Shown piece by piece: positions 878 to 23,950 of a DNA stretch of 24,000 nt. Below the pieces are notes generated by a model. It saw nothing but the letters and a program-made list of their open reading frames with translations, was not told the DNA's origin and did not search any database. Origin of the DNA: an uncultured Coriobacteriaceae bacterium (GTDB taxonomy: Bacteria; Actinomycetota; Coriobacteriia; Coriobacteriales; Atopobiaceae); NCBI GenBank assembly GCA_902798915.1, contig CADBYM010000007.1, positions 109,201 through 133,200 of the forward strand, read 5' to 3'. Positions within the stretch are counted from its first letter, which is position 1. Every line of letters starts with the position of its first letter. The position numbers and the translations under genes were made by a program.

Positions 878-1096
878 AGTTATCATGTCTACCAGCACAA
901 ACGCGGTCTAGTGACGTCATGACGTCATCCGACTTCGAATAAGGCGACGTCACGGGTGCGGGAACGGTGCCCGTGACGTCGCTTTGATGTCTGCAGGGAA
1001 GATAGTCAAAACTGCGGAGGAGACAGGAGACGTGGCGGAGCGTCTCGAGCCACCACAGGCCACCTCTATGACGCCTTTCAGATTGAGTGGGAGTAA
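878..1096 (+). repeat. Family-R repeat, copy A (core only; diverges right after the GATTGAGTGGGAGTAA box)
   Basis: Alignable by eye to the copies at 10125, 13960, 16232, 18193 and 23745. It contains tgacgtcatgacgtca, the 13-bp perfect hairpin gcgacgtcacggg(944..956)/cccgtgacgtcgc(970..982), and cagattgagtgggagtaa at 1079..1096. Confidence 0.85.
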
Positions 1097-1153
1097 ACCG
1101 GAGGGCAAAACACTCTTTCACGGTTTACCCCAAAAACACAAGATGCAACGCGA

Positions 1154-1202
1154 TTCGCGAAATGTTTCGCGAAAAGTTCTTTGCTTCCTAAATTGATATA
1201 CT
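1154..1202 (+). promoter_or_regulatory. Operator-like inverted repeat (TTCGCGAAA-tg-TTTCGCGAA, 1154..1173) followed by an extended -10 (TGaTATACT, 1194..1202)
   Basis: The perfect 9-bp inverted repeat and the TGnTATACT motif were read directly. They lie about 45 bp upstream of the ATG at 1247. No clear -35. Confidence 0.3.
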
Positions 1203-1246
1203 GCAAAGAAACTTCGTTGGGCTTGCATGCGAGGACGGGCATCAAC

Positions 1247-1687
1247 ATGGAGCTTCAAACGCTGCAGGAAATTCTCGCACGAGGAGAGACGGCCACAGTG
1301 AAGTTCAATGGGCGGGTCGTCGGCGTTCCCGAAGCGGCGATTTCAGACATACAGCGCAACATCGCAAATAACGTTCTTCGAAGGGGGCATTACGCTCAAG
1401 GACTTCAGCCCGGTGCCGACCTACTGAGGGGGATCCGCGCCAGGAGCAAGGGGGAGCTCAAGGAGCGGATCCTCAGGTACTTCGACAAGGTCAACGAGGT
1501 GCCCGTGCCCTACAGGTGGACGTGGGGCCTCGACGACATCGACCTCGGCGGGGAGGACGTGGACTCCATACCCTTCGAGGTGGTGAACGCCAAGGCCTGC
1601 CGCCCGGAGGACAGGAGCAAGAGGGCGCCGACGCCTCCCAGGAGGGGGCGACGGCCTAAGAAGGGGGACGGGCAAACTGCTCGCTAA
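1247..1687 (+). CDS. Hypothetical protein, possibly chimeric; the central segment resembles the C-terminal tail of IS630-type DDE transposases
   Basis: ORF 1181..1687, with an internal ATG at 1247 (MELQTLQEIL...). The segment SKGELKERILRYFDKVNEVPVPYRWTW resembles the conserved ...I..YI...N....PF.WT tail of IS630-family transposases. Composition shifts from lower to higher GC near 1430. No DDE core is present. Confidence 0.3.
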   Translation: MELQTLQEILARGETATVKFNGRVVGVPEAAISDIQRNIANNVLRRGHYAQGLQPGADLLRGIRARSKGELKERILRYFDKVNEVPVPYRWTWGLDDIDLGGEDVDSIPFEVVNAKACRPEDRSKRAPTPPRRGRRPKKGDGQTAR

Positions 1688-1764
1688 TTACCGTGGCTTC
1701 TACTAGTTGTCCCCGCAGGCCGTTTCGAGCGACCTGCGGATGTGCATGCAGCGCATGAATGACG

Positions 1765-3294
1765 TTACTGCAAGGGAATCGCTTCGCTTACGAACGTGCC
1801 CATTTCCTGCATGGTCGCCTCGTCGAAGTCCATCATGCGCACGGTGTGCGGCTTCGTGTCGCTGACAAACATCTTCACGTTCGGGTTGTCCGTGTCGTGC
1901 ATGCGCAGCGAGTACCACGGGTCGCTGCTGCCGTAGATGAACATGATCTTCGCTTCCGAGGTGTCGATCCACCTGGTCACGCCCTCGTAGAACGCGCCAT
2001 CATAGGCGAACGCCTGCTGCTGCTCGGGCGTGAACACCATCTTGAACACGAAGTTCTCCTCGTCTTCGGGCTTCACCGTCAGCACGTCTCCGAGGCCCGC
2101 TGCCTCGCATGCCCGGCGCAGGTACGAGAAGTCGTAGTGGTACTGCCCGTACTGCGAAGCAGCTCCCACGTAGTACGGCCAAGCGGGATGGTTCGCCGCC
2201 CAGTCGGTGGGGCTTGCCAGGACGAGGAGGAACTGGAGTTCGGCTTCCAGCTTCGCGCTCTTCTCGCTATCGGTCCCCTCGGGCATGGCAAGAACCGCCT
2301 TCATGTCCTCGAAGCTCACATCCATGTCCGGGTTGGAGCTCGTCTCCTGGTTGGACTGCCATTCCTGCACGGCCAGCTCGGCCACGGCCAGATCGAACAG
2401 GTTCCCTTCGGTCACGTACTCGCGGTACACGCTGCCTTGCTCTTCGCAAAGTTCCTTGAGCGCGGGGGCCAGGGCGTCCTTGTTCTTCATGAGCTCCACC
2501 TGGAACGACGACACCAGGTCGCGGTACTCTTTAGCTTTCTCGGCGCCATACTTCTCGTCACCGATTTTGGTGTACACGAATTCATAGCAACGCGGATCCT
2601 CGCGGCCACTGCTGAACGGTCCGACGTAGGGCACGTACAGGCCCATGTCCTCGGGGTAGTAGTAGGCGTACGACGTGCACACCTCTCCGCCGCGGCTCGT
2701 GCCGGTGGCAGCCCACGGGCCGTCGAGAACCTTGGAGAGCTCAGTGTAAATATGGTGGTAGTCAGCGGCGGCGTTCTCGGACGTCAGGTACTGCCAGCCT
2801 TCCGTGTCGTCATTCGACAGGCTCGCGGGCCTGGATTGCCCGAAGAAGCGGTGCTCCACATGGATGTAGTTGCCAGAGAGTATAGAGCAGAGCTCATGCG
2901 CGTCATCCGTGGCAATTCTCTGATCGAACAGCAGGTAGCCGTCGGTCTCCATGACGTTCGCCTTGGCGTCCTTGACAATACCGACCTCCACGCGCTGCGG
3001 GAACGTGCCGGCCGGAGGGTTCTTGTGGTCGAGCGGCTGCTCGAATGTAACAACGTACTTTTCGGCGTACACCTGCGACCCGCTGACGTCGACCGGATCG
3101 ACGCTCTTCACGCCGTCGAGAGCCGCGAGCGCTTGCGCCATCGACGACCCGCTGGCGCTTGCGGACGATGTGCTTGCGCTCGTGCCGTTCGCAGACGAGC
3201 TGTCGGAGCTGCCGGCGTTCCCACCACAGGCGGCGAGCGCCAGGGCCAGAGCGGCAGCCATGGCCATCACCGCAAATGCTTTCAAGAATCTCAT
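1765..3294 (-). CDS. Secreted lipoprotein, alpha/beta-hydrolase serine peptidase (S28/S37-like)
   Basis: ORF 1765..3336. The preferred start is Met15 at 3294, preceded by AAGGAGG (revcomp of 3301..3310). The N-terminus MRFLKAFAVMAMAAALALALAACGG is a lipoprotein signal with a lipobox Cys. A GTSRGG (GxSxGG) nucleophile motif and HRFFGQSRP / YLTSENAAADYH blocks are typical of S28/S37 peptidases. Confidence 0.75.
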   Translation of the reverse strand: MRFLKAFAVMAMAAALALALAACGGNAGSSDSSSANGTSASTSSASASGSSMAQALAALDGVKSVDPVDVSGSQVYAEKYVVTFEQPLDHKNPPAGTFPQRVEVGIVKDAKANVMETDGYLLFDQRIATDDAHELCSILSGNYIHVEHRFFGQSRPASLSNDDTEGWQYLTSENAAADYHHIYTELSKVLDGPWAATGTSRGGEVCTSYAYYYPEDMGLYVPYVGPFSSGREDPRCYEFVYTKIGDEKYGAEKAKEYRDLVSSFQVELMKNKDALAPALKELCEEQGSVYREYVTEGNLFDLAVAELAVQEWQSNQETSSNPDMDVSFEDMKAVLAMPEGTDSEKSAKLEAELQFLLVLASPTDWAANHPAWPYYVGAASQYGQYHYDFSYLRRACEAAGLGDVLTVKPEDEENFVFKMVFTPEQQQAFAYDGAFYEGVTRWIDTSEAKIMFIYGSSDPWYSLRMHDTDNPNVKMFVSDTKPHTVRMMDFDEATMQEMGTFVSEAIPLQ

Positions 3295-3567
3295 TCTGTT
3301 TCCCCTCCTTACGAAGCACGCCTTTTCATGATACACCTGACTCGCGGCCAGCGTCTCCTGCGTCTGCCGGCGAGGGCTGCTCCCGCACCGGCGAGGGCAG
3401 TCGTGGCAACGCCAGCAACCGACGTCGCGTCGCCTTGGCCATGTCGGCCCCTTTTCCCGGCGCGTCGCGTCGAAGACAAGCGCCTGTTATTCGGTTTCGT
3501 GCCGATACGAGGGCGAAAAAGTTATAATGTGCAATGCGATTCAGGCCAAAGGTGGTAGGAGAAGCTC

Positions 3568-6357
3568 ATGAAGGAACATTGGAAGTACAAAAAGCCGGTT
3601 GCGGTCGTCACCTCGATCGCGTTGGCGTTCTCGCTCGCGGTGGCTCCGAGGGTCGCGAGCGCCCGCGGCGCGGAAGACGAGCTCGCTGTTGGTACGATGG
3701 CCATGGACGGCATTCCCGAATGGGCGGTCGACGACGGTGCGGATGATTTCGCGCTCACCGCGCAATCGGCTCTGCCAAGCAAGTATGACCTGCGCAGCGA
3801 CGGCTTGGTGACGCCCGTGAAGAGCCAGTCCCCGTGGCGGGCGTGCTGGGCGTTCGCCGCGTTCGCCGGCATCGCCGCAGCCGAGACCTCGATGCTCTCG
3901 GCAACGGGTTTCACGGCTGAGGAGAGCCCGACAGACCTCTCCGAGCGCCATCTCGCATACTTTGCGCTGAATCCCGTTACCGAGGTCGACGATTCCGTAC
4001 AGGCGGGCGAGGGCATGTATACGATGAGCACCGACCGCAATGCGGCGTTCGACGCCGGCGGCGCGCCCGTGTACATCACCACCCTGTTTTCGCAAGGCGT
4101 CGGTCCGCAGGCGGAGGCAATGTTCCCGTACCGCGGGGTGGATGCGCAAGGGACGTCGCGCCTCAGCAACCAGGCGTTTGAAAGCGATCCGGAGGGCACC
4201 ACGCTTCTCCTGTATGCATCTGCAGAGGGCAAAACTGCGGACGAGTACAAGGGGACGCTGGAGAAGGAAGCAAGGGACACTGGCTCTACCTACGAAGAGG
4301 TGCTCAAACCTAAAATGGAGGAAGCTAAAAAGTACTGTGAAGGCGATTCCACCTATTTCTATCTTGACGACTGGACGATCCCCGCAACCGATGGCAGCGG
4401 TAACTCCAACCGCACGCTTACCCCCTTCATGACGTTGAGGGACGGCAACGTGCTGCCCGAGTACCAGACTATGGACGCGACTGGGACCGATGTGACTCCC
4501 AACCCTCAGAGCATCGCCGCCATGAAGCAGGAGCTGGTGAACGGCCACGGCGTCTCCATATCGTATAAGGCAGACAAGGCGTCACCCGGCGAGTCGGGTG
4601 ACTCGCGCTACATCAACCGCGATAATTGGGCCCAGTACACCTTCGAGATAGATAACGGCACCCATGCCGTGTGCATCGTCGGCTACGATGACGACTACCC
4701 GGCATCCAACTTCACGCATGACGTATTTGCAAGGGTGAAAGACGAAAGCGGTAGATACGTTCTCGCCAAGGACGCTGAGGGGAATCCTATTGTTGATCCC
4801 GATGCCACCGCAGCATCCACGCCTCCCGGTAACGGCGCGTGGATCGTGAAGAACAGCTGGGGTTCCGAGACCGACCAGACAACGGACGACCTCGGCAACG
4901 TGATCGGGACCGGCACCTATGGCGTGCGCGACGCGGATGGAAAGGCCACCGGGTACTTCTACCTCTCCTACTACGACAAGACCATCTCGCAGCCCGAGAC
5001 CATGACCTTCTCGCCCGATTTGCTGGACGCTGCCGGTGACTTCGAGGTCCTGCAGCACGACTACATGGCCGCGCAGGGCGGCTTCTACACCACGCCGACC
5101 ACAACTGACGTCACGAGCTCGGCGAACGTCTTCGAGGCACCGCAAGACCTCTCGATCAAGGCCGTCTCCACGCGCACGTCGGAAGAGAACCAACGCGTGA
5201 CCTTTGCCATCTACGAGCTAAAGGACGGCGCCACAGAACCCACCGACGGCACGATGCTCTACCGCACCTCGCGCAACTTCGAATATGCCGGTTTCCACCG
5301 CCTGGACCTCGATTGGGTCCTCGAAGTGAAGGCCGGGAAAAGGATCGCCGTCGTCTCGACCGCGTCCACCTTGGACGGCGGCGGCACGCGCCTCTATAGC
5401 GCTTCCGCGAACCAAGCAGCATTAACGAAACAGTCCGTGGAGTTTTTGAACGGGATGAGCGTGCCGGTGCCCATGTACGGCGAGGCGGTCGTGAACGAGG
5501 GGGAGAGCTTCCTGTTCTCGAACGGGCAATGGGTCGACTGGAGCGAGCATATTGCCGCGTTGCCACCAGTGGCAGGGGTCCCCATCCCGGGAGTTACGCT
5601 TCCCGGGGACTCCTACATCGAGCAGTTCCCCATCGACAACTTCTCCATCAAGCTGTATGCCGTGCCTGTGGAAATAACGCTCACGCACCAAGAGGCCAAA
5701 GCGGCCACCTGCACCGAGCCGGGCAACATCGAGTACTGGTACTACGACACGACCGACACATCCGAGGGTCAGAGGCGATACTACAAGGACCAAGACGGCA
5801 AGGAGGAGATCGAGCTGGCAGACACCGTTATCGCTCCGCTCGACCACAAGTGGGGGGCTTGGACGGAGCTCGATGGCGAGCAGCACCAGCGTGTGTGCGA
5901 GCGCGACTCGTCGCATGTGGAGAAGGCGGAACACGTTTGGGACGAGGGCGAGGTGACTACGGAGCCCACGGCCACGAACGACGGCGTGCGCACCTATATC
6001 TGCAAGGATTGCGGAGCGACCAAGACCGAGAGCATCCCCGCAACGGGCTCCGAGCAGAAGGGCGACGACGACAACGCCAAGACGGGCGATGCCGCAACGA
6101 CGGGAACGCCCAGCACCGGAGCTCCCACCAGGACGGGTGGTCCCGCAACGACGGGAACGCCCAGCACCGGAGTTCCCACCAGGACGTCCGGTACTAGCAG
6201 CGTCGCGGCGAAAGCGAATACGGGGCTGGCCAGCACCGGAGATTCCATGGCGGCGTTGCCGGCGCTTGCCGCAATGGGCCTGAGCGGCTTGGTTCTGCTC
6301 GTGGCGGGCAGCAGGATGCATGTCGGCCGCCGTCGTGACAAAGGGGATGAGTCTTAG
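3568..6357 (+). CDS. Cell-wall-anchored papain-family (C1) cysteine peptidase with an LAXTG sorting signal
   Basis: AGGAGA RBS upstream and a signal peptide (MKEHWKYKKPVAVVTSIALAFSLAVAPRVASA). C1 catalytic motifs are SQSPWRACWAFA (Cys), GTHAVCIVGYDD (His) and WIVKNSWG (Asn). The C-terminus has LASTG (6226..6240), a hydrophobic span and an RRRDK tail, which is a sortase class E-type LAXTG signal. Confidence 0.85.
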   Translation: MKEHWKYKKPVAVVTSIALAFSLAVAPRVASARGAEDELAVGTMAMDGIPEWAVDDGADDFALTAQSALPSKYDLRSDGLVTPVKSQSPWRACWAFAAFAGIAAAETSMLSATGFTAEESPTDLSERHLAYFALNPVTEVDDSVQAGEGMYTMSTDRNAAFDAGGAPVYITTLFSQGVGPQAEAMFPYRGVDAQGTSRLSNQAFESDPEGTTLLLYASAEGKTADEYKGTLEKEARDTGSTYEEVLKPKMEEAKKYCEGDSTYFYLDDWTIPATDGSGNSNRTLTPFMTLRDGNVLPEYQTMDATGTDVTPNPQSIAAMKQELVNGHGVSISYKADKASPGESGDSRYINRDNWAQYTFEIDNGTHAVCIVGYDDDYPASNFTHDVFARVKDESGRYVLAKDAEGNPIVDPDATAASTPPGNGAWIVKNSWGSETDQTTDDLGNVIGTGTYGVRDADGKATGYFYLSYYDKTISQPETMTFSPDLLDAAGDFEVLQHDYMAAQGGFYTTPTTTDVTSSANVFEAPQDLSIKAVSTRTSEENQRVTFAIYELKDGATEPTDGTMLYRTSRNFEYAGFHRLDLDWVLEVKAGKRIAVVSTASTLDGGGTRLYSASANQAALTKQSVEFLNGMSVPVPMYGEAVVNEGESFLFSNGQWVDWSEHIAALPPVAGVPIPGVTLPGDSYIEQFPIDNFSIKLYAVPVEITLTHQEAKAATCTEPGNIEYWYYDTTDTSEGQRRYYKDQDGKEEIELADTVIAPLDHKWGAWTELDGEQHQRVCERDSSHVEKAEHVWDEGEVTTEPTATNDGVRTYICKDCGATKTESIPATGSEQKGDDDNAKTGDAATTGTPSTGAPTRTGGPATTGTPSTGVPTRTSGTSSVAAKANTGLASTGDSMAALPALAAMGLSGLVLLVAGSRMHVGRRRDKGDES
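6094..6190 (+). repeat. 51-bp tandem duplication inside the C1 peptidase stalk (TTGTPSTG.PTRT.G x2)
   Basis: gcaacgacgggaacgcccagcaccggag(c/t)tcccaccaggacg occurs at 6094 and again at 6145. Confidence 0.8.
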
Positions 6358-8016: not shown

Positions 8017-8130
8017 GCAGCTCATATCTCGGTGTTCGCGTTCAAGGAGCCGGTCAACATCCCGATGGTTTTGGGCATCGCCTTGTGCGTCGCGGGCGGC
8101 CTCGTCGTGAACCTCTGCTCGCAGGGCTAG
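8017..8130 (+). pseudogene. 3' fragment of an SMR/DMT-type small membrane transporter gene
   Basis: Only the last ~37 codons of ORF 7498..8130 look protein-like: ISVFAFKEPVNIPMVLGIALCVAGGLVVNLCSQG*. This resembles the final TM helix of SMR/EamA-type transporters. The upstream part of that frame is Arg/His-rich noise. Confidence 0.35.
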
Positions 8131-8846
8131 GCCGCCGTCATGTACCCCGGCGTGCTCACCGTGTCGATGCGGAAGTACGTGTACGCCGTCTTGTTGCTGG
8201 CCCATGTGGTGCCGTTTCCGCCAACGAGCGACGTGGAGCACGAGTAGAAGCACTGCGAGCCCGTGATTCCGCTCGCAGGCAGCGCCCAGCTCGCGTCGGC
8301 CTGGATGGTCGTGAGCCTGCTGCACCCCGAGAACGTGTAGAACAGGTTCGTGAGCGCCGACGGGTCGAAGCCCCGGAAGTCGATGCTCATGAACGCGCAA
8401 GAGCTGAACGTGTAGCGCATGGAGCGCACGCCCGAGAGGTTGCCAAGCCCGGAGACGCTCGCCAGGTTCGTGCAGCTGTAGAACAGGTAGTTCAGGTTCA
8501 GGTACGGGAACGTGGCCATGTCGGCGGCGAAGGTCGCGCTCGTGAGGTACTGGCGGTGCGTCGGGCCCGTCATGCCGTCCCAGGGCGTGAAGCCCAGGCC
8601 GACGTACTTGCCGATCGCGCAGATCCGCCCGCTCGCGACGAGCTCGCGCGTGGCGTCCGGCGTGGAGGTCGCCGTGAGCACGCCCTCGCCGTCGGCGTAG
8701 CAGTGGGCCCAGAACCAGGTGCGGGCGTCGTTGTTCGGGTCGGTGAGCACGCCGCCGGCGCCCAGCTTGCACACGCTCGCGCCGCTTGTTGTCGAGGGCA
8801 CGAAGCCGTCCGTGCCGCCCACCAGGCGGTTGCAGCTGTTGAACAT
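8127..8846 (-). CDS. BspA-type leucine-rich-repeat / DUF285-like surface protein fragment (no signal peptide; probably 5'-truncated)
   Basis: Reiterated F.SC..L / F.GC..L units (LFYSCTNLASVSGL, YTFSSCAFMSIDF, LFYTFSGCSRLTTI, QCFYSCSTSLVGG) are typical of DUF285/BspA repeats. The ORF starts abruptly within such a repeat (MFNSCNRLVGG). Confidence 0.6.
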   Translation of the reverse strand: MFNSCNRLVGGTDGFVPSTTSGASVCKLGAGGVLTDPNNDARTWFWAHCYADGEGVLTATSTPDATRELVASGRICAIGKYVGLGFTPWDGMTGPTHRQYLTSATFAADMATFPYLNLNYLFYSCTNLASVSGLGNLSGVRSMRYTFSSCAFMSIDFRGFDPSALTNLFYTFSGCSRLTTIQADASWALPASGITGSQCFYSCSTSLVGGNGTTWASNKTAYTYFRIDTVSTPGYMTAA

Positions 8847-8865
8847 GAGCGAGCCGGAGAGTCCC

Positions 8866-8893
8866 GAGTCAAGGGGTCCTGACCCCTTGACTC
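8866..8893. repeat. Perfect 13-bp palindrome GAGTCAAGGGGTC-ct-GACCCCTTGACTC
   Basis: Read directly. It lies at the truncated 5' edge of the DUF285 fragment and about 150 bp upstream of relB copy 1. Confidence 0.8.
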
Positions 8894-9044
8894 ACAGGGA
8901 CTATTCTTCCATAGGAACAATAGGAACACGGCGGACGCTCCTCCAGCGTGGCATGCCAAAGAGCGCCTCTCCCCATACGGAGGGCAGCTATTGTATTGCA
9001 GAAGTATGTGCATCTGCGTTATCCTTTCGTCTGAGGTGATAATC

Positions 9045-12467: not shown

Positions 12468-12583
12468 CCCTCCCAGCGCACAGCCAAATCACCTGTGGAA
12501 GGGCCATGGGGAACATTCGATAGAGCGAGGCGCGCCTTGGCATCTGCCAGGGCGCGTCTCTGTGCATGCCGAAAGGAGTTCCC

Positions 12584-13909: not shown

Positions 13910-13959
13910 CGGCCCATGTCGATCGACGATGACCATGTGAAGCGCGACGGGAGAACTGG

Positions 13960-15710: not shown

Positions 15711-15799
15711 GGAGCGTGCAATCATCAAGTGTTCCCATATGAGTAAAGCCTGCCAGCTGAACGAAGAAGGATGTCATTATGAATCATGAGGGATGCCAG

Positions 15800-16231
15800 A
15801 TGAACAAGATCACCTGCATATGCCTGGGCGTGAGAGACATGGCGAGGTCGGTTGCCTTCTACCGCGACGAGCTTGGGTTCAAGACTGACTGCGTGGAGGA
15901 CAGCCCTCGCGTCTGCTTCTTCGATACGTCGGGGACCAAGTTCGAGCTGTACCCGCTGGACCTGCTGGCGGAGGACATCTGCCCTGACGACCCTCCGATG
16001 ATCGGCGGCGGCTTCGGCGGCATCACGCTGGCGTACAACGTCGCCAGGCGGGAAGAGGTCGACGAGGTGGTCGAGCTCGTCCGCGCTGCCGGCGGCACCG
16101 TCGTCAAGGAGCCCCAGGAGGTTTTCTGGGGAGGCTACCACGCGTACTTCGCGGACCCCGACCGCTACTACTGGGAGGTTGCCTGGGGCCCGGACTTCGA
16201 GTACGACGAGGATGGCATGCTGGTGTTCTAG
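15800..16231 (+). CDS. VOC-family protein, copy 2
   Basis: 143 aa, differing from copy 1 at 12/143 residues by my count. An upstream in-frame ATG at 15779 is an alternative start. The repeat begins right after the stop. Confidence 0.85.
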   Translation: MNKITCICLGVRDMARSVAFYRDELGFKTDCVEDSPRVCFFDTSGTKFELYPLDLLAEDICPDDPPMIGGGFGGITLAYNVARREEVDEVVELVRAAGGTVVKEPQEVFWGGYHAYFADPDRYYWEVAWGPDFEYDEDGMLVF

Positions 16232-16537
16232 AATCACCATGTCTACCAGCCCAAACGCAGTCGCTTGACTCATGACGCCGCCCGGCTCCAAGTGAGGCGA
16301 CGTCACGGGTGCGAGAACGGTGCCCGTGACGTCGTTTTGACGTCCGTAGGGAGGGTGGTCAAAACCACGGTAGAGACAAGAGATGCGACGGAGCATCTCG
16401 AACCACCGCGAGCCGCCACGGCCACGCAATCCTGATCGAGTGGGAGTAGGGCCGCTACAGAATTGTGCGATTCTCTAGGCGTCTCGAAGGGACTCGTGTG
16501 CCTGCAAGCCTAACGCGAGCGGTCGTATTTCCGGTCG
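16232..16537 (+). repeat. Family-R repeat, copy D (terminator hairpin deleted; tail retained)
   Basis: ctaccagcccaaacgcag..., hairpin 16297..16335, cctgatcgagtgggagtagg, ctacagaattgtgcgattctctaggcg. It then runs directly into tctcgaagggactcgtgtgcctgcaagcctaacgcgagcggtcg. Confidence 0.85.
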
Positions 16538-16565: not shown

Positions 16566-16587
16566 TTATCTCTGACGAAGCGAAGGT

Positions 16588-16917
16588 GTGTTCTACCTCG
16601 CCGTTGGCGAGGCGGTGCGCTCGCGGGACTTCGGAACGCAGCTTCTCGCCTGGCTCGCCGGCGAGTGTGCGGGAAGGGCCGTGGTCGCTAACATCGAGGC
16701 AGTGGGGACGGGAGCTGCGAACGAGGAGCAGCGCGTGCGGCGACTGGCCTTCTACACAAGGAACGGCTACGCACTTGCCGACTGTCGCCTGCTCGACGAC
16801 AGCGGCCTCTACGACATCGTTACTACATCGCCCGGTGACTTCGATTGGGAAGAGTACCTGGAACTCATCGGCAGCCTCGGGTTCGACGCCTACCACCCCA
16901 GGCTCGTCTCCCGCTGA
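16588..16917 (+). pseudogene. GNAT-family N-acetyltransferase, N-terminally truncated
   Basis: It begins inside the conserved core (..FYLAVGEAVRSRDFGTQLL, the R/QxxGxG/A-type acetyl-CoA loop) and continues ...RRLAFYTRNGYA. About 50 N-terminal residues expected for a GNAT fold are missing. The only start is GTG, and it abuts the inverted repeat. Confidence 0.5.
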
Positions 16918-17012
16918 GCATCGGGTATGCCAGCAGGGGCTCCGAGCGACAGCCGCGGTTCAGGGTGTTCGAGAACTCGATCCTTGTGATTCTGCCCCTC
17001 TTCAGCGAAGAG

Positions 17013-17363
17013 ATGGATCTGTCAGACGACGAGAGGAGGGTGTACCGCGAGCTCGTGGGCAGGTCTCTACAGACTTCGGAGCTGACAGAGAGGACGGGCT
17101 TTGGGAGGACGAAGGTCCAGGAGATCCTCGAGAAGCTTGTCAAGAAGGGGTACGTCTCTGTCTCCGGCAGGGGAAGGGGAACGCGATATACCGCCACGAG
17201 GTGGGCTTCTCTGGTTGGACGTCGTCGCTACCAGCGCAAACGCAGTCGGGTGACGTCATCTTTCCGAATGACTGTGTGCTGTGCACACGTCCGTCCGGGA
17301 TACTCCCGGATCAGAGCCAACGGGAGTCAAAGGGACGGGTCATTTGACGCATGCGTTGGATGA
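17013..17363 (+). CDS. Small winged-helix DNA-binding protein (native 3' end probably replaced by repeat sequence)
   Basis: MDLSDDERRVYRELVGRSLQTSELTERTGFGRTKVQEILEKLVKKGYVSVSGRGRGTRYTA is a wHTH with the G.GRGTRY ending. That ending is common at the C-termini of AlbA_2/HATPase_c_4-type regulators. Beyond about 17210 the frame reads through repeat stub G. Confidence 0.45.
   Translation: MDLSDDERRVYRELVGRSLQTSELTERTGFGRTKVQEILEKLVKKGYVSVSGRGRGTRYTATRWASLVGRRRYQRKRSRVTSSFRMTVCCAHVRPGYSRIRANGSQRDGSFDACVG
17228..17259 (+). repeat. Family-R repeat, copy G (32-bp 5' stub; a highly degenerate remainder may extend to ~17470)
   Basis: ctaccagcgcaaacgcagtcgggtgacgtcat matches the family 5' end nearly perfectly. 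Downstream there are only faint echoes: ttccgaatga vs ttcgagtga, a gtgtgc-tgt-gcacac hairpin, and agattcaatgcgggaagg vs tgattgagtgggagtagg about 217 bp from the start. Confidence 0.6.
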
Positions 17364-17525
17364 GGCGTGATGGGCCATGGACTGCGTCCCGTCATCCTCG
17401 AACAGCGTCGCTAAGCAGACGGCCATCGGTGGCGATGTGCATTAGATTCAATGCGGGAAGGCCGATCCATGAACATCGCCGAGAAGGTCAGCGGGCATCA
17501 CTCTGGGACGAGCACGGTAATTTGA

Positions 17526-17534
17526 TGATATAAT
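17526..17534 (+). promoter_or_regulatory. Extended -10 promoter element TGaTATAAT for the phd/yefM-relE operon
   Basis: Perfect TATAAT (17529..17534) with an upstream TG, 31 bp upstream of the ATG at 17565. AGGAGG RBS at 17553..17558. Confidence 0.5.
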
Positions 17535-17564
17535 TCAGATAATATTTGCCAGAAGGAGGTAACG

Positions 17565-17831
17565 ATGCAGATCATGCCGGTGTCAGAGCTGCGCAACCAC
17601 TACGCCGCAGTCGAGGAGGCGGTGGCCACAGGCGGACCGGTCTTTCTCACCAAGAACGGATACGGCTCGATGGTCGTGATGAACATGGAGCAGTACGAGA
17701 GCCTCACGGGCAACGTCGAAGCGATGCTGGACGCGGCGGACCGCCAAGCGGCGTCCACCACGATGCGTTACTCCCACGACGAGGTGTTTGGTGCACTGAG
17801 GGAGGAGCTGCATCGTGCCGACGCAGTATAG
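17565..17831 (+). CDS. Phd/YefM-family type II antitoxin
   Basis: MQIMPVSELRNHYAAVEEAVATGGPVFLTKNGYGSMVVMNMEQYESL is a canonical Phd/YefM N-terminal domain. Strong RBS. Its 3' end overlaps the downstream toxin by 17 nt. Confidence 0.85.
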   Translation: MQIMPVSELRNHYAAVEEAVATGGPVFLTKNGYGSMVVMNMEQYESLTGNVEAMLDAADRQAASTTMRYSHDEVFGALREELHRADAV

Positions 17832-18129
17832 GTTGCAGTACCTGCCGCTCTTCTGGGACGACCTCGAGCAGGCCGTGTTCTACGTCCGTGACGTGCTCAA
17901 GAACCCAGAGGCGGCCGAGCGCCTGCTCGACCGAACCGAGGCAGCTATCCTCGAACACGCCAAGGCACCAACCATGGCGCAGGTATACAAGACCACGCGG
18001 AATAGGCCGGTGCCGTACTACTGGTTCGCGGTGGGTAACTATATGGTCTTCTACGTGGTGTTAGATGATGTAATGGAGGTCCGCCGCTTCATATATGGTG
18101 CCCGCGATCTCACTAAGATGCTGCCCTGA
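17815..18129 (+). CDS. RelE/ParE-superfamily type II toxin
   Basis: 104 aa with a GTG start overlapping the antitoxin 3' end. ...YYWFAVGNYMVFYVVLDDVMEVRRFIYGARD fits the RelE/ParE beta-sheet core. Confidence 0.75.
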   Translation: MPTQYRLQYLPLFWDDLEQAVFYVRDVLKNPEAAERLLDRTEAAILEHAKAPTMAQVYKTTRNRPVPYYWFAVGNYMVFYVVLDDVMEVRRFIYGARDLTKMLP

Positions 18130-18192
18130 CCTACTAGGCCTAACAGACGTATGATGGCATTTCCTATGCCATTGAAGGGAAGAACAGCCTCG

Positions 18193-18525
18193 CTGCCAGC
18201 ATAAAAGCAGCATGCTGACGTCATGACGTCGCTCGACTCGAAGCGAAGTGACGTCACGGGCGCAGAATCGGTGCCCGTGACGTCGCTTTGACGTCCATAG
18301 GGAGGATAGCCAAAGACACGACTGGCAGCGTGAGCACGAGGGCTCGCGCCGAACTACCACAAACTACCCTAGCTACGTAATCCTGATTGAGTGGGAGTAG
18401 GACTGCTACATAATTGTGCGATTCTCCAGGCGCTCCGGACGTGGTTCCGGGGCGCCTTTTTGGTGCTTCTTGGGGACTCGCGCGCGTTTTATCCAAACGC
18501 ATGCAACGCGCAACGGCTGATACGA
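18193..18525 (+). repeat. Family-R repeat, copy E (most complete: core, promoter-like element, terminator and tail)
   Basis: GACGTC cores at 18217, 18225, 18250, 18279 and 18290. Hairpin 18248..18260/18274..18286. cctgattgagtgggagtaggactgctacataattgtgcgattctccagg. Terminator at 18428..18461. Tail ggggactcgcgcg...ccaaacgcatgcaacgcgcaacgg. Confidence 0.85.
18428..18461 (+). terminator. Intrinsic terminator within repeat E
   Basis: aggcgctccgg-acgtggtt-ccggggcgcct followed by TTTTT. Confidence 0.7.
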
Positions 18526-18598
18526 GCAAAGCCATATTGCTTCGTCTGTATTGTAAAAGTACCTGCAAATGCGTTATCCTCTTCTCGAGGTGATTATC

Positions 18599-18910
18599 AT
18601 GCAGAAGTCAGCGACGCTCAACCTGAGGGTAGATCCCGAGGTAAAGCAATCGGCCGAGTCCGTCCTGTCGCAGCTCGGGCTCTCCATGTCGACCGCCGTC
18701 GACATGTTCCTCCGCCAGGTATCCCTCACGGGAGGGATTCCCTTCAGGGTCGCCCTCCCCGAGGCACCACGCTCCGTCGACGTGGATTCGATGACGGACA
18801 GGCAGCTGTTCGAGGCCCTGTCGCGCGGCCTCCAGGAGGCCGAGGAGGGCAGGGGGGCAGAGGCGTCCGTTGCGTTCTCGCGCGTGAGGGAGGAGCTCCT
18901 CGGTGCGTAG
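18599..18910 (+). CDS. RelB/DinJ-family type II antitoxin (copy 2)
   Basis: About 85% aa identity to copy 1. In the first 57 codons I count about 23 synonymous differences and 1 non-synonymous. About 60 bp of upstream promoter region is shared with copy 1 (tgtattg.a.aagta..tgca..tgcgttatcct). Confidence 0.85.
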   Translation: MQKSATLNLRVDPEVKQSAESVLSQLGLSMSTAVDMFLRQVSLTGGIPFRVALPEAPRSVDVDSMTDRQLFEALSRGLQEAEEGRGAEASVAFSRVREELLGA

Positions 18911-19250
18911 CTACGAGGTGCGCGTCACTCCCTCGGCCTTGGCACAGATATGGGATGCCGTCCGCTACGTCCGGGACGAGCTCTGCATGCCGCAGGCGGC
19001 AGCCAGGCTGCTAGACGAGATTGAGGAGGTGGCCAGAGGCCTCTCGAGCATGCCGAACAGGTTCCATGCAGTTCGGGTGGAGCCGCTTCTCTCGTCGGGA
19101 GTTCGTCGCATGAACGTTCGTGGCTACTCGCTCTTCTACAGGCTCGACGAGACGAGCTCGACGGTGGACGTGTTAGCCGTGTTCTACGGCACCCCCTCGG
19201 ACGCGCGAATCAGAAGGGCCTTCCAGATTGGGACGGGGAGTGAGCAATGA
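18903..19250 (+). CDS. RelE/ParE-superfamily type II toxin (copy 2)
   Basis: Paralog of 9349..9696 with the same GTG start/antitoxin stop overlap (GTGCGTAG). Confidence 0.75.
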   Translation: MRSYEVRVTPSALAQIWDAVRYVRDELCMPQAAARLLDEIEEVARGLSSMPNRFHAVRVEPLLSSGVRRMNVRGYSLFYRLDETSSTVDVLAVFYGTPSDARIRRAFQIGTGSEQ

Positions 19251-19678
19251 ACAAGATCACCTGCATATGCCTGGGCGTGCGGGACATGGAGCGCTCCGTC
19301 CGCTTCTACTGCGACAAGTTGGGGTTCAGGACGGACTGCATGGAGGAAAGCCCCCGCGTCTGCTTCTTCGATACGCCGGGGACCAAGTTCGAGCTGTACC
19401 CGCTTGGCCTGCTGGCGGAGGACATCTGCCCCGACGATCCTCCTGCCGTCAGCGGCGGCTTTGGCGGCATCACGCTGGCGTACAACGTCGCCAGGAGAGA
19501 AGAGGTCGACGAGGTGATCGAGCTCGTCCGTGCCGCCGGCGGCACCGTCGTCAAGGAGCCCCAGCAGGTGTTCTGGGGAGGCTACCACGCGTACTTCGCG
19601 GACCCCGACGGCTACTACTGGGAGGTCGCCTGGGGGCCGGACTTCAAGTACGACGAGAATGGCATGCTGGTGTTTTAG
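19247..19678 (+). CDS. VOC-family protein, copy 3
   Basis: 143 aa, differing from copy 1 at 19/143 residues by my count. It has the same ATGA overlap with the toxin stop. Unlike copies 1 and 2, no repeat follows directly. Confidence 0.85.
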   Translation: MNKITCICLGVRDMERSVRFYCDKLGFRTDCMEESPRVCFFDTPGTKFELYPLGLLAEDICPDDPPAVSGGFGGITLAYNVARREEVDEVIELVRAAGGTVVKEPQQVFWGGYHAYFADPDGYYWEVAWGPDFKYDENGMLVF

Positions 19679-20002
19679 TGCTGGGGAAGATGAGGCTGCC
19701 GTGCAACCACTGCCGTCGACGCTTCCTGTACGTTGCTAGAGACACACTCCCGTACGCCTTGCCGACATAATGACGAGGAGCACGGTTTGTCCAAGATTTG
19801 TCCATGGTGGTACTCACGGACCTGCCCCCATGAGCACTAAACCCATCCCGTCGGTACTCGAATGACACTCACGCAGCTAGGGCGGCCAGTGCGACGCCGA
19901 GAGGCACAGGATTAAACGGGAGGAGATTGTTGTCCGTGAATGCGGGTATCATGGTTCCATTGACAAAAACGTAGGCCGACACAAGGAGTGGGGGTGTATT
20001 CC

Positions 20003-21601
20003 ATGACAGAGCCCGGAGTCGTATTCACAAAGGACTGGGTGGTCGACTTCGTCCTCAACGTGGCGGGATACACCACCGACAGGGACCTAACATCCGGCTG
20101 CATTGTCGAGCCGTCCTGCGGGGACGGGGCCTTCCTCGGTCGTGTGGTGTTGCGGTTATGCGAGTGCGCAGTGGATGCTGGTGCGTTGTCCGTCGAGCGT
20201 CTCGTCTCCTGCATAAGGGCCTACGACGTCGACAACGCTTCCGTCTTGGCAAGCAGAGCGACTGTCAGGCGAGTGCTCGAGAGCTTCGGCGTGAGCCCGG
20301 CCGACTCCGAGAGACTTGTCGGCATCTGGGTCATACAAGGCGACTTTCTTCTGTCCGAAGTGCCTCCGGCTCGGTGGGTAGTGGGCAACCCTCCCTATGT
20401 GCGTTCGTCCCTGATTCCCCGGGAACAGCGGGTGGCATACGGCCGAGTCCTATCCTGCGTGACCATGGGCTCGGATCTCTATGTCGGCTTCTTCGAGAAG
20501 GGCCTCGAGGCGCTTGAGGAGGACGGGGCTCTCTGCTTCATCTGTGCGGATCGCTGGTTGCAGAATCGATACGGATCGCGTCTGAGGGCTTTCGTCTCCG
20601 AGGGGTACAGTCTCGACGCACACATCCGGATGCACGGCGTCGATGCCTTCGAGGAGGATGTCTCGGCGTATCCGGCGATCTCGCTCATCAGAAGGGGTTC
20701 TGGCAGGCCCATGCGCTACATGGAGTGCGGGCCTCGCTTCACCTTGGATGACGTGCGTGACGCCGAGGAGTGGGTCTTTGCGGGAGAGGGGGCGTACCGT
20801 TCCAAGAATGCCACGGCGGACGTTCTCCCACCCCTTCATGGAGCTGAGTCAATACCGCTTGCATCTCCCGACAGGCTGAAGGTCCTCGGGGAACTCGCGC
20901 ATCGGCATCCCCGTCTGGAGGACGCTGGGGTGAGGCTGGGTATCGGCGTCGCCTCGGGGTGCGACGAGGTGTACATCACCGAAGACCACGACCTCGTGGA
21001 GGCGGACCGCTTGCTTCCGCTGTTCTTCATGCGCGACTGGAGGGCTGGCAACCATGAGGGAACGAAGTGCCTCGTGAACCCCTGGGGTTCGGACGGAAGG
21101 CTCGTCGATCTCGACAGCTACCCGAAGCTCAAGGGATATCTTGAGGAGAACGAGGAGCGGCTTAGGGCACGCAGGGTGGCCAAGGACCACCCAGACTCCT
21201 GGTATCGCACGCTCGACAAGCCCGACCAGTCGCTCATGGGAAGGGAAATGCTGCTCTTTCCTGACATGGCGATGCGGTCGGATCCCGTGTACAGCGACGG
21301 GTCTCGATACCCACACCACAACTGCTACTGGATGACATCGAGTGAGTGGGACGTGCGATCGTTGGGCGGGTTGATGATGAGCGACCTCGTAGAGGGCTAC
21401 GTGGGCGCGTTCGGGGTGAAGATGAGGGGCTCGACCCTCCGCTTCCAGGCGCAGTACCTGCGCATGGTACACATCCCCCGCGCTGATGACGTTGACGAGC
21501 AGACGAAGAGGGAGCTTGCGGAGGCTTTTGCCACCGGGAGCCGCGATTTGGCCAATGAAGCAAGCAGAAGAGCCTATGGGTTGGAGGACGCGTATGCGTG
21601 A
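20003..21601 (+). CDS. Type II N6-adenine DNA methyltransferase (gamma-class, Eco57I/PaeR7I-methylase-like)
   Basis: SAM-binding motif I VEPSCGDGAFL precedes catalytic motif IV VVGNPPYV. At about 530 aa it resembles M.PaeR7I/M.XhoI-type enzymes. Its 3' end overlaps the downstream endonuclease start by 8 nt. An alternative GTG start lies at 19988. Confidence 0.8.
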   Translation: MTEPGVVFTKDWVVDFVLNVAGYTTDRDLTSGCIVEPSCGDGAFLGRVVLRLCECAVDAGALSVERLVSCIRAYDVDNASVLASRATVRRVLESFGVSPADSERLVGIWVIQGDFLLSEVPPARWVVGNPPYVRSSLIPREQRVAYGRVLSCVTMGSDLYVGFFEKGLEALEEDGALCFICADRWLQNRYGSRLRAFVSEGYSLDAHIRMHGVDAFEEDVSAYPAISLIRRGSGRPMRYMECGPRFTLDDVRDAEEWVFAGEGAYRSKNATADVLPPLHGAESIPLASPDRLKVLGELAHRHPRLEDAGVRLGIGVASGCDEVYITEDHDLVEADRLLPLFFMRDWRAGNHEGTKCLVNPWGSDGRLVDLDSYPKLKGYLEENEERLRARRVAKDHPDSWYRTLDKPDQSLMGREMLLFPDMAMRSDPVYSDGSRYPHHNCYWMTSSEWDVRSLGGLMMSDLVEGYVGAFGVKMRGSTLRFQAQYLRMVHIPRADDVDEQTKRELAEAFATGSRDLANEASRRAYGLEDAYA

Positions 21602-22250
21602 CGACGTGAGGGAAGCCGTTCTCGATTGTGTCAACTATGCGGTGACGAAGGGAACCCAGAGCGGCAGGCACATCGCGCCCCTCGCAATGAAGATTGCCGA
21701 GGACATGGAGCGCGTGGGGTATGATCCAGATTCCATCTACCTCGATGACGTTAACGTGACGCTGCCTGGCTGGTTCCGTCCCTCCAAGAAGTGGGACATC
21801 ACGGCCTTCGAGGGTGGGGTGCTCGTTGCCGCTATCGAGCTCAAGAGTATTAACAGCAGCTTTGGGAACAACGCGAACAACCGTGCCGAGGAAGCGCTTG
21901 GCAGCGCGTCGGATGTCGACTACGCGACGCATAACCACTTGCTAGAACCAAACGACCTGCCGCCAAACTTCGGGTATGTGCTCCTCGTACGGAAGACGCC
22001 GGAGAGTACGAGGAAGGCCAAGATCGGCTCCAAGTCACGCTACGCCTTCGACAAGGAGTTCGAGAACTCGTCCTACGTTGAGCGCTTCACCATCCTGGGC
22101 AAGCGCCTTCTCCGCGAGAGGATCTACCAGGCTGTGTGGGTGGCCGTGGTCGACCTAGAGAATGGCGTTGTTGAGGAGCCCGACCCGCTTATGACCTACG
22201 ACAAGTTTGTCGCCCACCTCAAGGGCTGGATTGACGTCATGAGGGCGTAG
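21594..22250 (+). CDS. Type II restriction endonuclease, XhoI/PaeR7I-like (PD-(D/E)XK)
   Basis: ATG at 21594 with a GGAGG RBS. The core ...KKWDITAFEGGVLVAAIELKSINSSFGNNANNRAEEALGSA matches my recollection of the XhoI/PaeR7I family signature (ELKS..GPSFGNN.NNR.EE..G). It is translationally coupled to the methylase. The family assignment comes from memory, not a search. Confidence 0.6.
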   Translation: MRDDVREAVLDCVNYAVTKGTQSGRHIAPLAMKIAEDMERVGYDPDSIYLDDVNVTLPGWFRPSKKWDITAFEGGVLVAAIELKSINSSFGNNANNRAEEALGSASDVDYATHNHLLEPNDLPPNFGYVLLVRKTPESTRKAKIGSKSRYAFDKEFENSSYVERFTILGKRLLRERIYQAVWVAVVDLENGVVEEPDPLMTYDKFVAHLKGWIDVMRA

Positions 22251-22304
22251 CATAGTCAAAGCGCTGCACTAGGGGTCACGGGGGCTCCTCCGTGTACGGC
22301 GATC

Positions 22305-23144
22305 CTAAGCCAGCTGATACCCCTCTGCGGCCTGAGCGTTTGCTACGTCGTGGTATAAAACCATCCAATGTGGCCCATGTGCGGCTGTCGACCCACAGGT
22401 TCTTGGGACTGAACCGGAGTTTTCGGTGGTTAGGTAAGGCGGATAGGGTCTTTGACCAGCACATTCTTGCTCTCGCACGCCGACTAGTGCCAACAAACGA
22501 ACAGTTTTGTGCGGTCTTGGCGTCTCGTAGTCGTATAAAATCCGCCACTTCTGTGCATCGCCAAGTGCGACCCCATGCCGGTATAGATGCGCGACGTCGG
22601 TCCTGCCTCGATCGCCGTCAGGTCCATGCCAGTCCGCGATGTAAGAAGTGTGGCCATCGTATGGGACCCTCGAGGGGAACCCAAGAAACAGCTCGCAGAT
22701 GGCGTCTCGTGCAGCGTCCCAGCCTTTGGGGTATGCACTGTAGCCACCCCAACTCCAGCAGTACCCGTCCCTCGTTCCGATGGTAAGATGCCAGCTACCG
22801 CCGTCCAAAACGTCCTTGTTGCGGTAGAAGGAATAGGTGTCTGCAAGGCCAAGGTCTAGGAGTCTCGTGATGAGGCTGTTCATCTCCTCGATGGAGACCG
22901 AATCGGGAGGGTTGATAACCCGGGCTTTGTGTCTGCTTATCGGGTGGCCGTGGTCGTGCCAGAACCGGACCCTATAGCAGCCGATATTCGGTGCGTACCA
23001 GACCTCTATGTTGGAATCGCCCTCGAAGAAGCCACCGTCATAGCATGTGAGGAATCGTATATCCCTCCCATCAATCCCTCTCGGGTCTCTCGCCGCGGGC
23101 TCTTCGCGCTCTGGGGTTGGCAGATACTCCTCCAGAGGAATCAT
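22305..23144 (-). CDS. Hypothetical protein (279 aa, no recognisable domain)
   Basis: Long ORF in a visibly lower-GC stretch, convergent with the R-M pair. Trp/Tyr/Gly-rich core (WHLTIGTRDGYCWSWGGYSAYPKGW). The C-terminal ~70 aa look low-complexity, so the true stop or frame is uncertain. Confidence 0.45.
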   Translation of the reverse strand: MIPLEEYLPTPEREEPAARDPRGIDGRDIRFLTCYDGGFFEGDSNIEVWYAPNIGCYRVRFWHDHGHPISRHKARVINPPDSVSIEEMNSLITRLLDLGLADTYSFYRNKDVLDGGSWHLTIGTRDGYCWSWGGYSAYPKGWDAARDAICELFLGFPSRVPYDGHTSYIADWHGPDGDRGRTDVAHLYRHGVALGDAQKWRILYDYETPRPHKTVRLLALVGVREQECAGQRPYPPYLTTENSGSVPRTCGSTAAHGPHWMVLYHDVANAQAAEGYQLA

Positions 23145-23182
23145 TGGTTCGCCTTCGTAATCTCCGCATCTTTCGGAGAGCC

Positions 23183-23446
23183 TCAGTTGACCGTTCTCGT
23201 CGAACCAAGCCCCTGGTCAGTATGGTCGACGACGATCTCATTCTTCGAGATGGTGACCACCCAGAATGACCCAGACGCATCATTGATGTGCATGGGCTGA
23301 CCGTCAGGAACAGTCCCCTCGAACAGTACCTCACCTGCCAGCACGCTTCTAGTCACCTTAAGCGTGAGGTAGCCGTCCGTTTCGAAAACCCGCAGAACAA
23401 CCGACTTGTTGTCAAAGCAGTACTTGCGTGCGCTCTTTAGGGGCAT
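23183..23446 (-). CDS. Hypothetical small protein (87 aa)
   Basis: ORF upstream of and co-oriented with 22305..23144, with protein-like composition. No recognisable motif. Confidence 0.35.
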   Translation of the reverse strand: MPLKSARKYCFDNKSVVLRVFETDGYLTLKVTRSVLAGEVLFEGTVPDGQPMHINDASGSFWVVTISKNEIVVDHTDQGLGSTRTVN

Positions 23447-23744
23447 GCCGTCCTAAACAACACGCCCAACAACCTCGTCTTGGCTCTCAAAGTGAACGAC
23501 GCTTACAAACATGGCGGGATCCTCCTCCTGGGAATGGGCTCTCTTTACACCGTGGCATCGATTATCCCATCCACACAGGACACAAATTGGCTTTCGCGCA
23601 AGCCTCAAATGAATGGTGAGCCATGACCCTGAGCATCATAGAGAGCCCTATCGGGTATGGAGTGCAAAAAGGCTGGCCGTCGAAGCCTATCGGTGCGGGG
23701 AATGAAAGGGTGCCGCTTCCAGCAATTGTAAGGAAGACTGTACT

Positions 23745-23950
23745 CATCAGCGCAAACGTAGTCGGGTGACATGATGTCGCCCGACTTCGAGTGAGGTGAC
23801 GTCACGGGTGCGAAAAGGGTTCCCTTGACGTCGTTTTGACGTCCGTAGGGAAGAAAGTCGGAGCTCAAGGTGGGCAACACGGACACGAGAGCGACTGCCC
23901 GACCACTCCGAACAACCGCAGCCACGCAATTCAGATTGGGTGGGAGTAGG
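23745..23950 (+). repeat. Family-R repeat, copy F (core only; diverges right after the GATTGGGTGGGAGTAGG box into AT-rich DNA)
   Basis: catcagcgcaaacgtagtcgggtgacatgatgtcgcccgacttcgagtgaggtgacgtcacggg...cccttgacgtcgttttgacgtccgtaggg...cagattgggtgggagtagg. Confidence 0.8.

Follow-up and report, generated by a model that had tools for sequence, protein, structure and literature searches.

Long co-oriented repeats of an Atopobiaceae gene island as probable attachment junctions left by repeated integration at the guaA 3′ end

A stretch of 24,000 nucleotides (nt) from the genome of an uncultured Coriobacteriaceae bacterium (contig CADBYM010000007.1, positions 109,201 to 133,200) is divided by long, co-oriented repeats into cassette-like modules of small genes. 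This stretch is referred to here as the window, and coordinates are those of the whole window unless a contig or locus is named by an L number. The arrangement raises the question of what the repeats are and how an array of this kind was assembled: an earlier note on the sequence had likened it to an integron built around an undescribed element. The analysis described here indicates that the repeats are very probably attR/attP-type attachment (att) junctions that were left by serial integration of a family of integrative mobilizable elements (IMEs) at the 3′ terminus of guaA, which encodes GMP synthase.

The repeat family and its likeness to the end of guaA

Repeat searching and alignment with MAFFT recovered six co-oriented copies of ~215 nt on the plus strand of the window (repeats A to F) and one stub of ~35 nt (G), in agreement with the family of long repeats proposed earlier. 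With an nhmmer profile made from these six, each copy is re-found at E values of 1e-57 to 1e-62, and pairwise identities between the window copies are 61–78%. The same profile detected one additional copy and one stub just beyond the window on contigs of the same strain. In total, the source strain possesses seven full junctions and two stubs across ~33 kb, between which Pfam and NCBIfam scans revealed no integrase or relaxase. Stub G, in which similarity stops at the center of the first palindrome of the repeat, is read as a decayed junction.

The repeat unit extends approximately from CAT-N2-CTACCAGCGC to GATTGAGTGGGAGTA. It comprises an arm of ~200 nt with five copies of TGACGTC set as two long palindromes, and a hypervariable stretch of ~60 nt that precedes the att core GAGTGGGA(G/A)TA(A/G). 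Outside this stretch the alignment columns are 80–99% conserved, and the binding-site-like motifs in the repeat are 85–99% conserved across species. TGACGTC occurs 36 times in the window compared to 4.8 expected occurrences, and the 3′ motif GAGTGGGARTAR is found six times, once per repeat, compared to 0.19 expected. The TGACGTC copies are predicted to be arm-type sites for the arm-binding domain of an integrase. The motif TGACGTCG(Y)TTTGACGTC and more GACGTC copies recur in conserved intergenic blocks of unrelated bacteria, both in Lachnospiraceae, including Butyrivibrio (L030, L031, L042, L053, L085, and L096), and in Mycobacterium (L078, L080, L081, and L094); these blocks may be analogous integrase arm sites or operators.

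Every repeat copy ends in GAGTGGGA(G/A)TA(A/G), which corresponds to the last four codons (EWE-stop) of guaA. The correspondence was noticed while the repeats were examined for a hidden open reading frame (ORF), when the conserved end was found to read L-I-E-W-E-stop. A hidden gene was itself rejected, as all six frames are stopped or frameshifted in many copies and the coding signal is limited to the EWE-stop derived from guaA. Within a set of 38 copies, GAG and GAA alternate synonymously at the third codon, and the triplet after it is TAA, TAG or TGA, a coding signature. Genuine guaA genes terminate in ATVEWE-stop or ATIEWE-stop with the same 12 nt, PKPIATVEWE-stop being encoded with GAGTGGGAGTAA, and their identity was established by a match to Pfam GMP_synt_C that runs to the last residue (E = 9e-31). 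Judged by its sequence, the att core would replace the final guaA codons with a copy.

The spread of the repeat was assessed by scanning one genome per species with an 18-nt repeat motif followed by profile searching. Loci that matched the motif but not the profile exposed a second conserved block situated just downstream of guaA. A guaA 3′ flank of ~100 nt with a terminator also lies behind repeats B, C, D, and E, that is, behind four of the six window copies. Window positions 18389–18500 match the last 12 nt of genuine guaA genes plus 100 nt of flank with 84–91% identity over 112 nt (E down to 1e-41). When four genuine guaA ends were aligned with repeats A, C, D, and E, GAGTGGGA was invariant and the downstream flank was common, whereas the upstream sequences were unrelated, consisting of guaA coding sequence in the former and of the repeat arm in the latter. 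In no fewer than 10 unrelated contexts downstream, homology breaks precisely after GAGTA. The guaA-flank extension (~100 nt), which includes a strong intrinsic terminator, stands behind about 40% of copies, and a second flank (class 2, ~170 nt) with its own GC-rich hairpin and then a T-rich run follows the core in ~20%. The class 2 flank may be an alternative left arm or a native guaA flank. It is located at window positions 1097–1150 and behind about 10 other copies, for instance in L009 after 6004, in L058 after 3277, and in L190 at 1–88 (minus strand), the right end of an integrase-bearing element described below.

On the sense strand the repeat sits past a stop codon and ahead of an intrinsic terminator, a placement that would also suit a structured RNA in the 3′ untranslated region of module transcripts that acts as a stabilizer, a regulator or a processed small RNA; conservation would then reflect RNA function and not recombination. 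In the second palindrome (alignment columns 62–118), G-T variants that retain pairing of the top strand number 28 compared to eight A-C variants, and the helix extension consists mostly of G-T pairs, which are compatible with G-U pairing in a transcript. However, the strand bias is absent in the first palindrome (24 vs. 33), two-sided compensatory changes are almost absent, and the variable region is not more stable than shuffled sequence (mean z = −0.36), the opposite strand in fact folding better. The repeated palindromic GACGTC by itself creates many alternative pairings, and neither RNAalifold nor folding of single copies, a scan for stacks or shuffling of the variable region yielded a consistent RNA structure beyond the two palindromes. 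When the window was searched with Rfam 15, only a group II intron was matched, with the repeats unmatched at the gathering threshold and at E values up to 10. An RNA element, which also leaves the guaA codons unexplained, is thus very unlikely.

Outside the window the scan found about 55 repeat copies in about 40 loci. The hosts are all Atopobiaceae, Olsenella, Parafannyhessea, and related Coriobacteriia, mostly from the ruminant gut, and several loci carry two or three co-oriented copies. The gene upstream of the repeat is co-oriented with it in 33 of 41 cases (eight opposite), with a gap that is mostly 4–31 nt; the gene downstream is less constrained (25 co-oriented vs. 15). Collections of plasmid, phage and viral contigs contained no sequence similar to the repeat, and an origin in any of these was rejected. 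A VOC gene as the carrier of the repeat likewise was rejected: among 80 examined loci of 406 metagenome matches to VOC homologues, the repeat was present only at the three homologues with 87–89% identity. The association between repeat and VOC gene is therefore local to this clade, as VOC homologues in other bacteria are without the repeat. Likeness to a Xer/dif site was dismissed also, since nothing in the repeat appears to resemble the consensus core, ATAA-N6-TTAT.

Discrete units of ~225 nt with defined ends, internal hairpins and many copies might equally suggest a miniature transposable element that inserts downstream of genes, whether a miniature inverted-repeat transposable element (MITE) or a palindrome-associated element of the IS200/IS605 type. 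Terminal inverted repeats and target-site duplications are nevertheless absent, nothing similar resides on plasmids, phages or viral contigs, and the copies are confined to the island beside guaA instead of being dispersed. With a 3′ end that is guaA sequence as well, a transposable element of this sort is exceedingly improbable.

Integrase-bearing relatives and arrays behind guaA

Locus L052 encodes a 372-amino-acid (aa) tyrosine integrase near guaA that possesses Arm-DNA-bind_4, Phage_int_SAM_3, and Phage_integrase domains and is adjoined by a gene for a MobA/VirD2-type relaxase. An integrase 77% identical to that of L052, with the same three domains, is specified by contig L190 (9,167 bp); its sequence marks it as a probable Tn916-type arm-binding enzyme. 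Read in the orientation of guaA, L190 commences with the guaA-flank extension and a conserved block with three GACGTC sites, followed by three small ORFs. Genes for the relaxase, a 127-aa ORF, an AAA_25 protein, a NikA-like protein, the integrase, and an HTH_17 (Xis-like) protein come next, and the contig continues with an XRE regulator, an ApeA-type HEPN protein, a full repeat (nhmmer E = 1.7e-53), and GAGTGGGA. With an integrase, a relaxase and arms at both ends, and with a conjugation apparatus absent within the 9.2-kb contig, L190 fits an IME. The layout therefore identifies the repeat as the right-hand arm of such an element and the guaA-flank block as its left-hand arm. The copy in an isolate of Parafannyhessea umbonata (L061) is a decayed derivative, with nothing but a C5 methylase, an Eco29kI nuclease, and ApeA left between these two arms.

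In six loci (L007, L022, L044, L061, L089, and L112), guaA lies immediately upstream of a repeat-bearing array and is co-oriented with it. The first module past guaA in L007 and L112 is the relBE-VOC-repeat module of the window. By this gene order, guaA is followed by a junction equivalent to that behind any repeat. In L025 and L074, which belong to the same contig, sugar genes of the phosphotransferase system (PTS) and of GH1 type intervene between guaA and the first repeat; these are either cargo of the first, oldest module or native genes. In L015, L032, and L057, the stop codon of a GH1 (6-phospho-beta-glucosidase) gene is followed after 3 nt by the first palindrome of a repeat that is without its first ~20 nt.

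The core and flank match guaA, guaA stands upstream of the arrays in relatives, and an autonomous relative bears the same arms. The identity with guaA and the layout of L190 mark the repeats as attR-type junctions, each composed of an element arm and the guaA att core. The units of the window array are flanked by att sites, lack integrase and transfer genes, and stand in tandem in one orientation, as in tandem accretion of cis-mobilizable elements; guaA's final codons (core GAGTGGGA) are found in their junction repeats, as in guaA-targeting elements. In the mechanism proposed, an element circle with arm, core and flank would recombine either with the terminal core of guaA or with a core already present in the array. 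Each integration would add one module and one junction with orientation unchanged. Most modules would have lost, or never have had, the integrase and relaxase, and would persist as cis-mobilizable remnants with one to few accessory genes. Homologous exchange between junctions that are ~80% identical would then shuffle the modules further. The enzyme that acts on the window repeats is presumably an integrase of the L190 and L052 type, which would act on the window modules in trans.

Exchange of modules is evident from comparisons between strains, in accord with the modular reassortment suggested in the earlier note. The ATPase431 module is situated behind the module of a 190-aa gene in the window strain and behind relBE-VOC in L048 and L079, and the relBE-VOC module is followed either by MATE or by ATPase431, depending on the strain. 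The similarities of repeat segments are uncorrelated between copies, and breakpoints vary by pair and often fall in the most conserved 100 nt. Thus, homologous exchange between junctions also shaped the array. Linkage of repeat segments to neighboring cargo is weak, with only the first ~20 nt tracking the upstream gene, and segments linked to upstream or downstream cargo were discounted as an explanation. A single fixed crossover in the first palindrome, as hinted by the stub, was rejected also: the truncation points differ among copies (model positions 34, 41, 44, 110, and 138). Stubs and internally deleted copies are signs of decay.

These patterns might alternatively signify that the junctions are now inert and that modules are reassorted only by duplication and by RecA-dependent exchange or gene conversion between repeats that are ~80% identical. 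The scattered breakpoints, the uncorrelated segments, the stubs and internally deleted copies, and the lack of an integrase near the window array would all be expected. However, the repeat retains sharp, conserved 5′ and 3′ edges across dozens of different contexts, and its binding-site-like motifs remain conserved across species, which argues for continuing selection on a functional site, and intact integrase-bearing relatives reside within the same bacterial family. Fully inert junctions are therefore unlikely. The sharp edges, together with the short spacing after stop codons, also suggest that the arms are still under selection, and they leave room for active exchange of mini-modules in trans. 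In its strongest form, this would make the end of guaA a cassette-capture platform, functionally analogous to an integron but based on another enzyme, on which small, integrase-less modules with a complete, selected arm of ~215 nt and an att core are excised, exchanged and reinserted in trans by the integrase of a co-resident mobilizable element, a view that is entertained only tentatively. It is similarly doubtful, if conceivable, that such a platform provides a shared pool of single-gene defense and toxin-antitoxin (TA) cassettes.

Several observations weigh against the interpretation of the repeats as junctions from serial integration at guaA. An integrase was seen neither in the 24 kb of the window nor in 16 kb of flanks from the same strain in Pfam and NCBIfam scans, and the integrases of L190 and L052 are linked to the repeats solely by position. 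In the source strain, the left flank was followed over 10 kb to PTS and FGGY-kinase genes, with guaA not reached. The variation of breakpoints between pairs of repeats fits homologous exchange and not one fixed crossover. The excess of top-strand G-T variants in the second palindrome (28 vs. 8) is not predicted for a site that functions purely as double-stranded DNA. Finally, many copies are positioned 4–31 nt past a stop codon, which decay of larger elements explains only loosely.

Comparison with integrons and guaA-targeting elements

Integrons were the first analogy drawn for the window. The integron attC sites are imperfect palindromes of 57–141 bp with the boxes R″/L″/L′/R′ (RYYYAAC ... 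GTTRRRY). An integron-like platform would here entail single-stranded folding of long attC-like sites and their recombination by a dedicated IntI-like integrase at one end of the array. As in an integron, the modules are co-oriented and each ends in a recombination site located just past a stop codon (33 of 41 upstream genes co-oriented; all window copies on the plus strand), the repeats contain strong palindromes, and the cargo of TA pairs, VOC proteins and defense genes is typical of sedentary integrons. By contrast, the repeats of ~215–330 nt exceed the length of attC sites, neither the R″/L″/L′/R′ layout nor GTTRRRY is present, and the 5′ and 3′ ends of the repeat do not pair. Instead, the 3′ end is guaA coding sequence, GAGTGGGARTAR. 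Pfam and NCBIfam searches disclosed no IntI-type gene among the ORFs of the window or in both flanks of the same strain (16 kb), and the integrase of relatives is apparently a Tn916-type arm-binding enzyme within a mobilizable element. With IntI, attI and attC architecture all lacking, the integron claim is not upheld, and an integron-like platform is highly improbable. The analogy holds functionally only, in the co-orientation of modules, recombination in trans, and cargo of TA, VOC and defense genes.

The accompanying statement that no recombinase is present holds for the 24 kb, but a truncated recombinase-in-trio gene lies ~2.3 kb to the left of the window. This remnant (L100 255–1297, ~2.3–3.3 kb left of window position 1) retains only the first 344 of the 537 codons of the first recombinase. 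Its divergent ORF of 344 aa, at the left edge of the island, was considered as an IntI analogue and rejected, for what it encodes is a truncated RitA, the first protein of a recombinase-in-trio element of 3.9 kb. An intact element of this type in L106 (1–3855) comprises three tyrosine recombinase genes that overlap one another (537, 327, and 355 aa), and its terminal inverted repeats of ~58 bp are unrelated to the repeat family.

Elements that target guaA are known from other bacteria. GIsul2 has att sites within the guaA 3′ end whose shared core is 5′-GAGTGGGA-3′, and the GIsul2 integrase recombines several such sites, of which internal ones mobilize sub-units (PMC9376610). Tn5801-like islands are bordered at guaA by 11-bp direct repeats (PMC4844618), and the actinobacterial element ATE-1 of Trueperella pyogenes targets the 3′ end of guaA (PMC5704250). 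The claim that the window repeat is an undescribed element consequently fails, because the repeat is an att site of a known type, the junction of guaA-targeting elements, whose class is treated in these reports (PMC9376610; PMC4844618; PMC5704250); such a match had been named in advance as evidence against novelty. The window family resembles GIsul2, Tn5801 and ATE-1 in its presumed insertion, by a tyrosine integrase, at the final guaA codons, in the presence of GAGTGGGA within the direct repeats that mark the junctions, in the restoration of the end of guaA by the element, in additional internal att sites that would allow sub-units to move, and in cargo that includes TA pairs. The window family differs from these elements in that most units are without integrase or transfer genes and carry one to few genes each, in its conserved arm of ~200 nt with five TGACGTC sites, in its tandem arrangement of at least nine junctions, and in its hosts, which are rumen and gut Coriobacteriia.

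The sequence of integration, decay and accretion, and the cis-mobilizable elements (CIMEs) that it generates, have been set out in a review (PMC5704250). In the ICESt1-related islands of Streptococcus thermophilus and in IME-CIME tandems, elements decay to att-flanked units, newcomers enter the att site at a gene end, and co-oriented tandem arrays result (PMC5704250). Whereas those tandems usually contain two or three elements of several kb, the array here consists of many very small modules with arms that are still sharply conserved. Sedentary chromosomal integrons share co-oriented small modules that each have a 3′ recombination site, an enzyme in trans, and cargo of TA, VOC and anti-phage genes. 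They are distinguished by IntI, attI and attC, in place of which the window array has conventional att arms with a core from a housekeeping gene, and the modules here appear to bring their own promoters and terminators.

An ordinary mechanism for a striking integron-like array would be supplied by repeated integration behind guaA and subsequent decay of the elements. It would also document a guaA-targeting family of mobilizable elements in rumen and gut Coriobacteriia, a group in which mobile elements have been little characterized, and a guaA site that gathers many tiny modules, among them candidate anti-phage ATPases (PDC-S01), restriction-modification (R-M) systems, ApeA-type genes and TA pairs. 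Genomic islands are known to be built in this way; the present one is unusually long and cassette-like and is rich in defense and TA genes. If the modules indeed are still mobile in trans, they would represent a second, independent route to an integron-like cassette economy.

Cargo and other features of the island

Coordinates of the repeats, the cargo that precedes each of them, and an intron are assembled in Table 1. The cargo types proposed from the sequence were borne out by Pfam, which identified two RelB/ParE pairs, one Phd/ParE pair, three VOC genes and a VOC remnant, MATE, two DUF4143 ATPases that are 40% identical to each other, and an R-M pair of an Eco57I-type methylase and an XhoI-type nuclease. 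Spacing also was largely as described earlier: repeats A, B, and D start about 8–20 nt after a VOC stop codon, repeat E starts about 60 nt after a ParE/RelE-type toxin gene, stub G is within the wHTH reading frame, and repeat F follows minus-strand ORFs. Repeat C does follow MATE closely, but with a gap of about 24 nt and not 50. Upstream of repeat A there is a mere VOC remnant of 65 nt (814–876). A large plus-strand ORF at 1759–3558 is spurious; the true gene there is a minus-strand S28/S37 peptidase gene (1765–3294).

Table 1. Positions of the repeats with their predicted parts, of the preceding cargo, and of the group II intron in the window.
Feature	Position	Strand	Flank to	att core	Content
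Repeat A	884–1096	+		GAGTGGGAGTAA at 1085–1096	P arm (element-side arm); followed by class 2 flank, not guaA-flank mimic
Repeat B	10138–10352	+	10421	10341–10352	P arm; guaA 3′-flank mimic and terminator hairpin
Repeat C	13933–14139	+	14255	14128–14139	5′ part of P arm divergent; guaA-flank mimic, terminator 14167–14196
Repeat D	16238–16449	+	16536	16438–16449	P arm; guaA-flank mimic with terminator deleted
Stub G	17230–17263	+			Initial ~34–44 nt of P arm
Repeat E	18189–18400	+	18500	18389–18400	P arm; guaA-flank mimic, terminator 18428–18457
Repeat F	23739–23949	+		GGGTGGGAGTAG at 23938–23949	P arm; DUF4143 ATPase module next, past window end
Cargo before A	42–876	+			C-terminal part of DUF4143 ATPase (431 aa in L100), 65-nt VOC remnant
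Cargo before B	8127–10124				239-aa minus-strand ORF, RelB, ParE/RelE-type toxin, VOC
Cargo before C	12566–13909	+			MATE efflux pump
Cargo before D	14454–16231	+			AAA_14 and DUF4143 ATPase (PADLOC candidate defense family PDC-S01), VOC
Cargo before E	16845–18129	+			Winged helix-turn-helix (wHTH) protein, Phd/YefM antitoxin, ParE-type toxin
Cargo before F	18569–23446				RelB, ParE, VOC, Eco57I-type methylase, XhoI-type nuclease, two minus-strand ORFs
Group II intron	10422–12393	+			Reverse transcriptase (RT)/maturase gene 10885–12309; inserted exactly after terminator T-run of repeat B

With its R-M, ApeA, TA, VOC, MATE, and PDC-S01 ATPase genes, the island is an accessory and defense locus. 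The DUF4143 ATPases match the candidate defense family PDC-S01 of PADLOC with E values of 5e-61 and 2e-139. At least three divergent DUF4143/AAA_14 ATPases (~40% identity) are encoded in the island, at 14454–15710, at 42–743 (L100 2980–4275), and at L097 4376–5605, and no other family is found beside the repeat as often (19 of the 95 ORFs that flank it in all loci). The fourth VOC copy (19247–19678) has no repeat behind it, and its relBE-VOC module passes directly into the methylase/XhoI-type R-M pair, which suggests that a junction once present behind this copy was deleted.

The group II intron noted previously was substantiated by Rfam matches (RF02001, 122 bits; RF01998, 52 bits) and by the RVT_1 and GIIM domains of the RT/maturase ORF. 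Its insertion behind a terminator would place it in class C. The intron is polymorphic in its presence: L009 has an empty site (2037|2038) that is colinear across window positions 10421|12394, and L097 is likewise intron-less, with 275 nt separating the end of VOC from the start of MATE. Metagenome sample ERZ27280627 holds both an intron-less contig and a contig that ends within the intron.

The 146-aa ORF that follows repeat A (1247–1687) has no Pfam match and is also conserved on contigs L100 and L104 of this strain; we take it to resemble the C-terminal part of an IS630-type transposase. Two tandem 51-nt units that are 90% identical (6077–6178) are located in the gene for a 929-aa lectin-like/papain-like protein (3568–6357).

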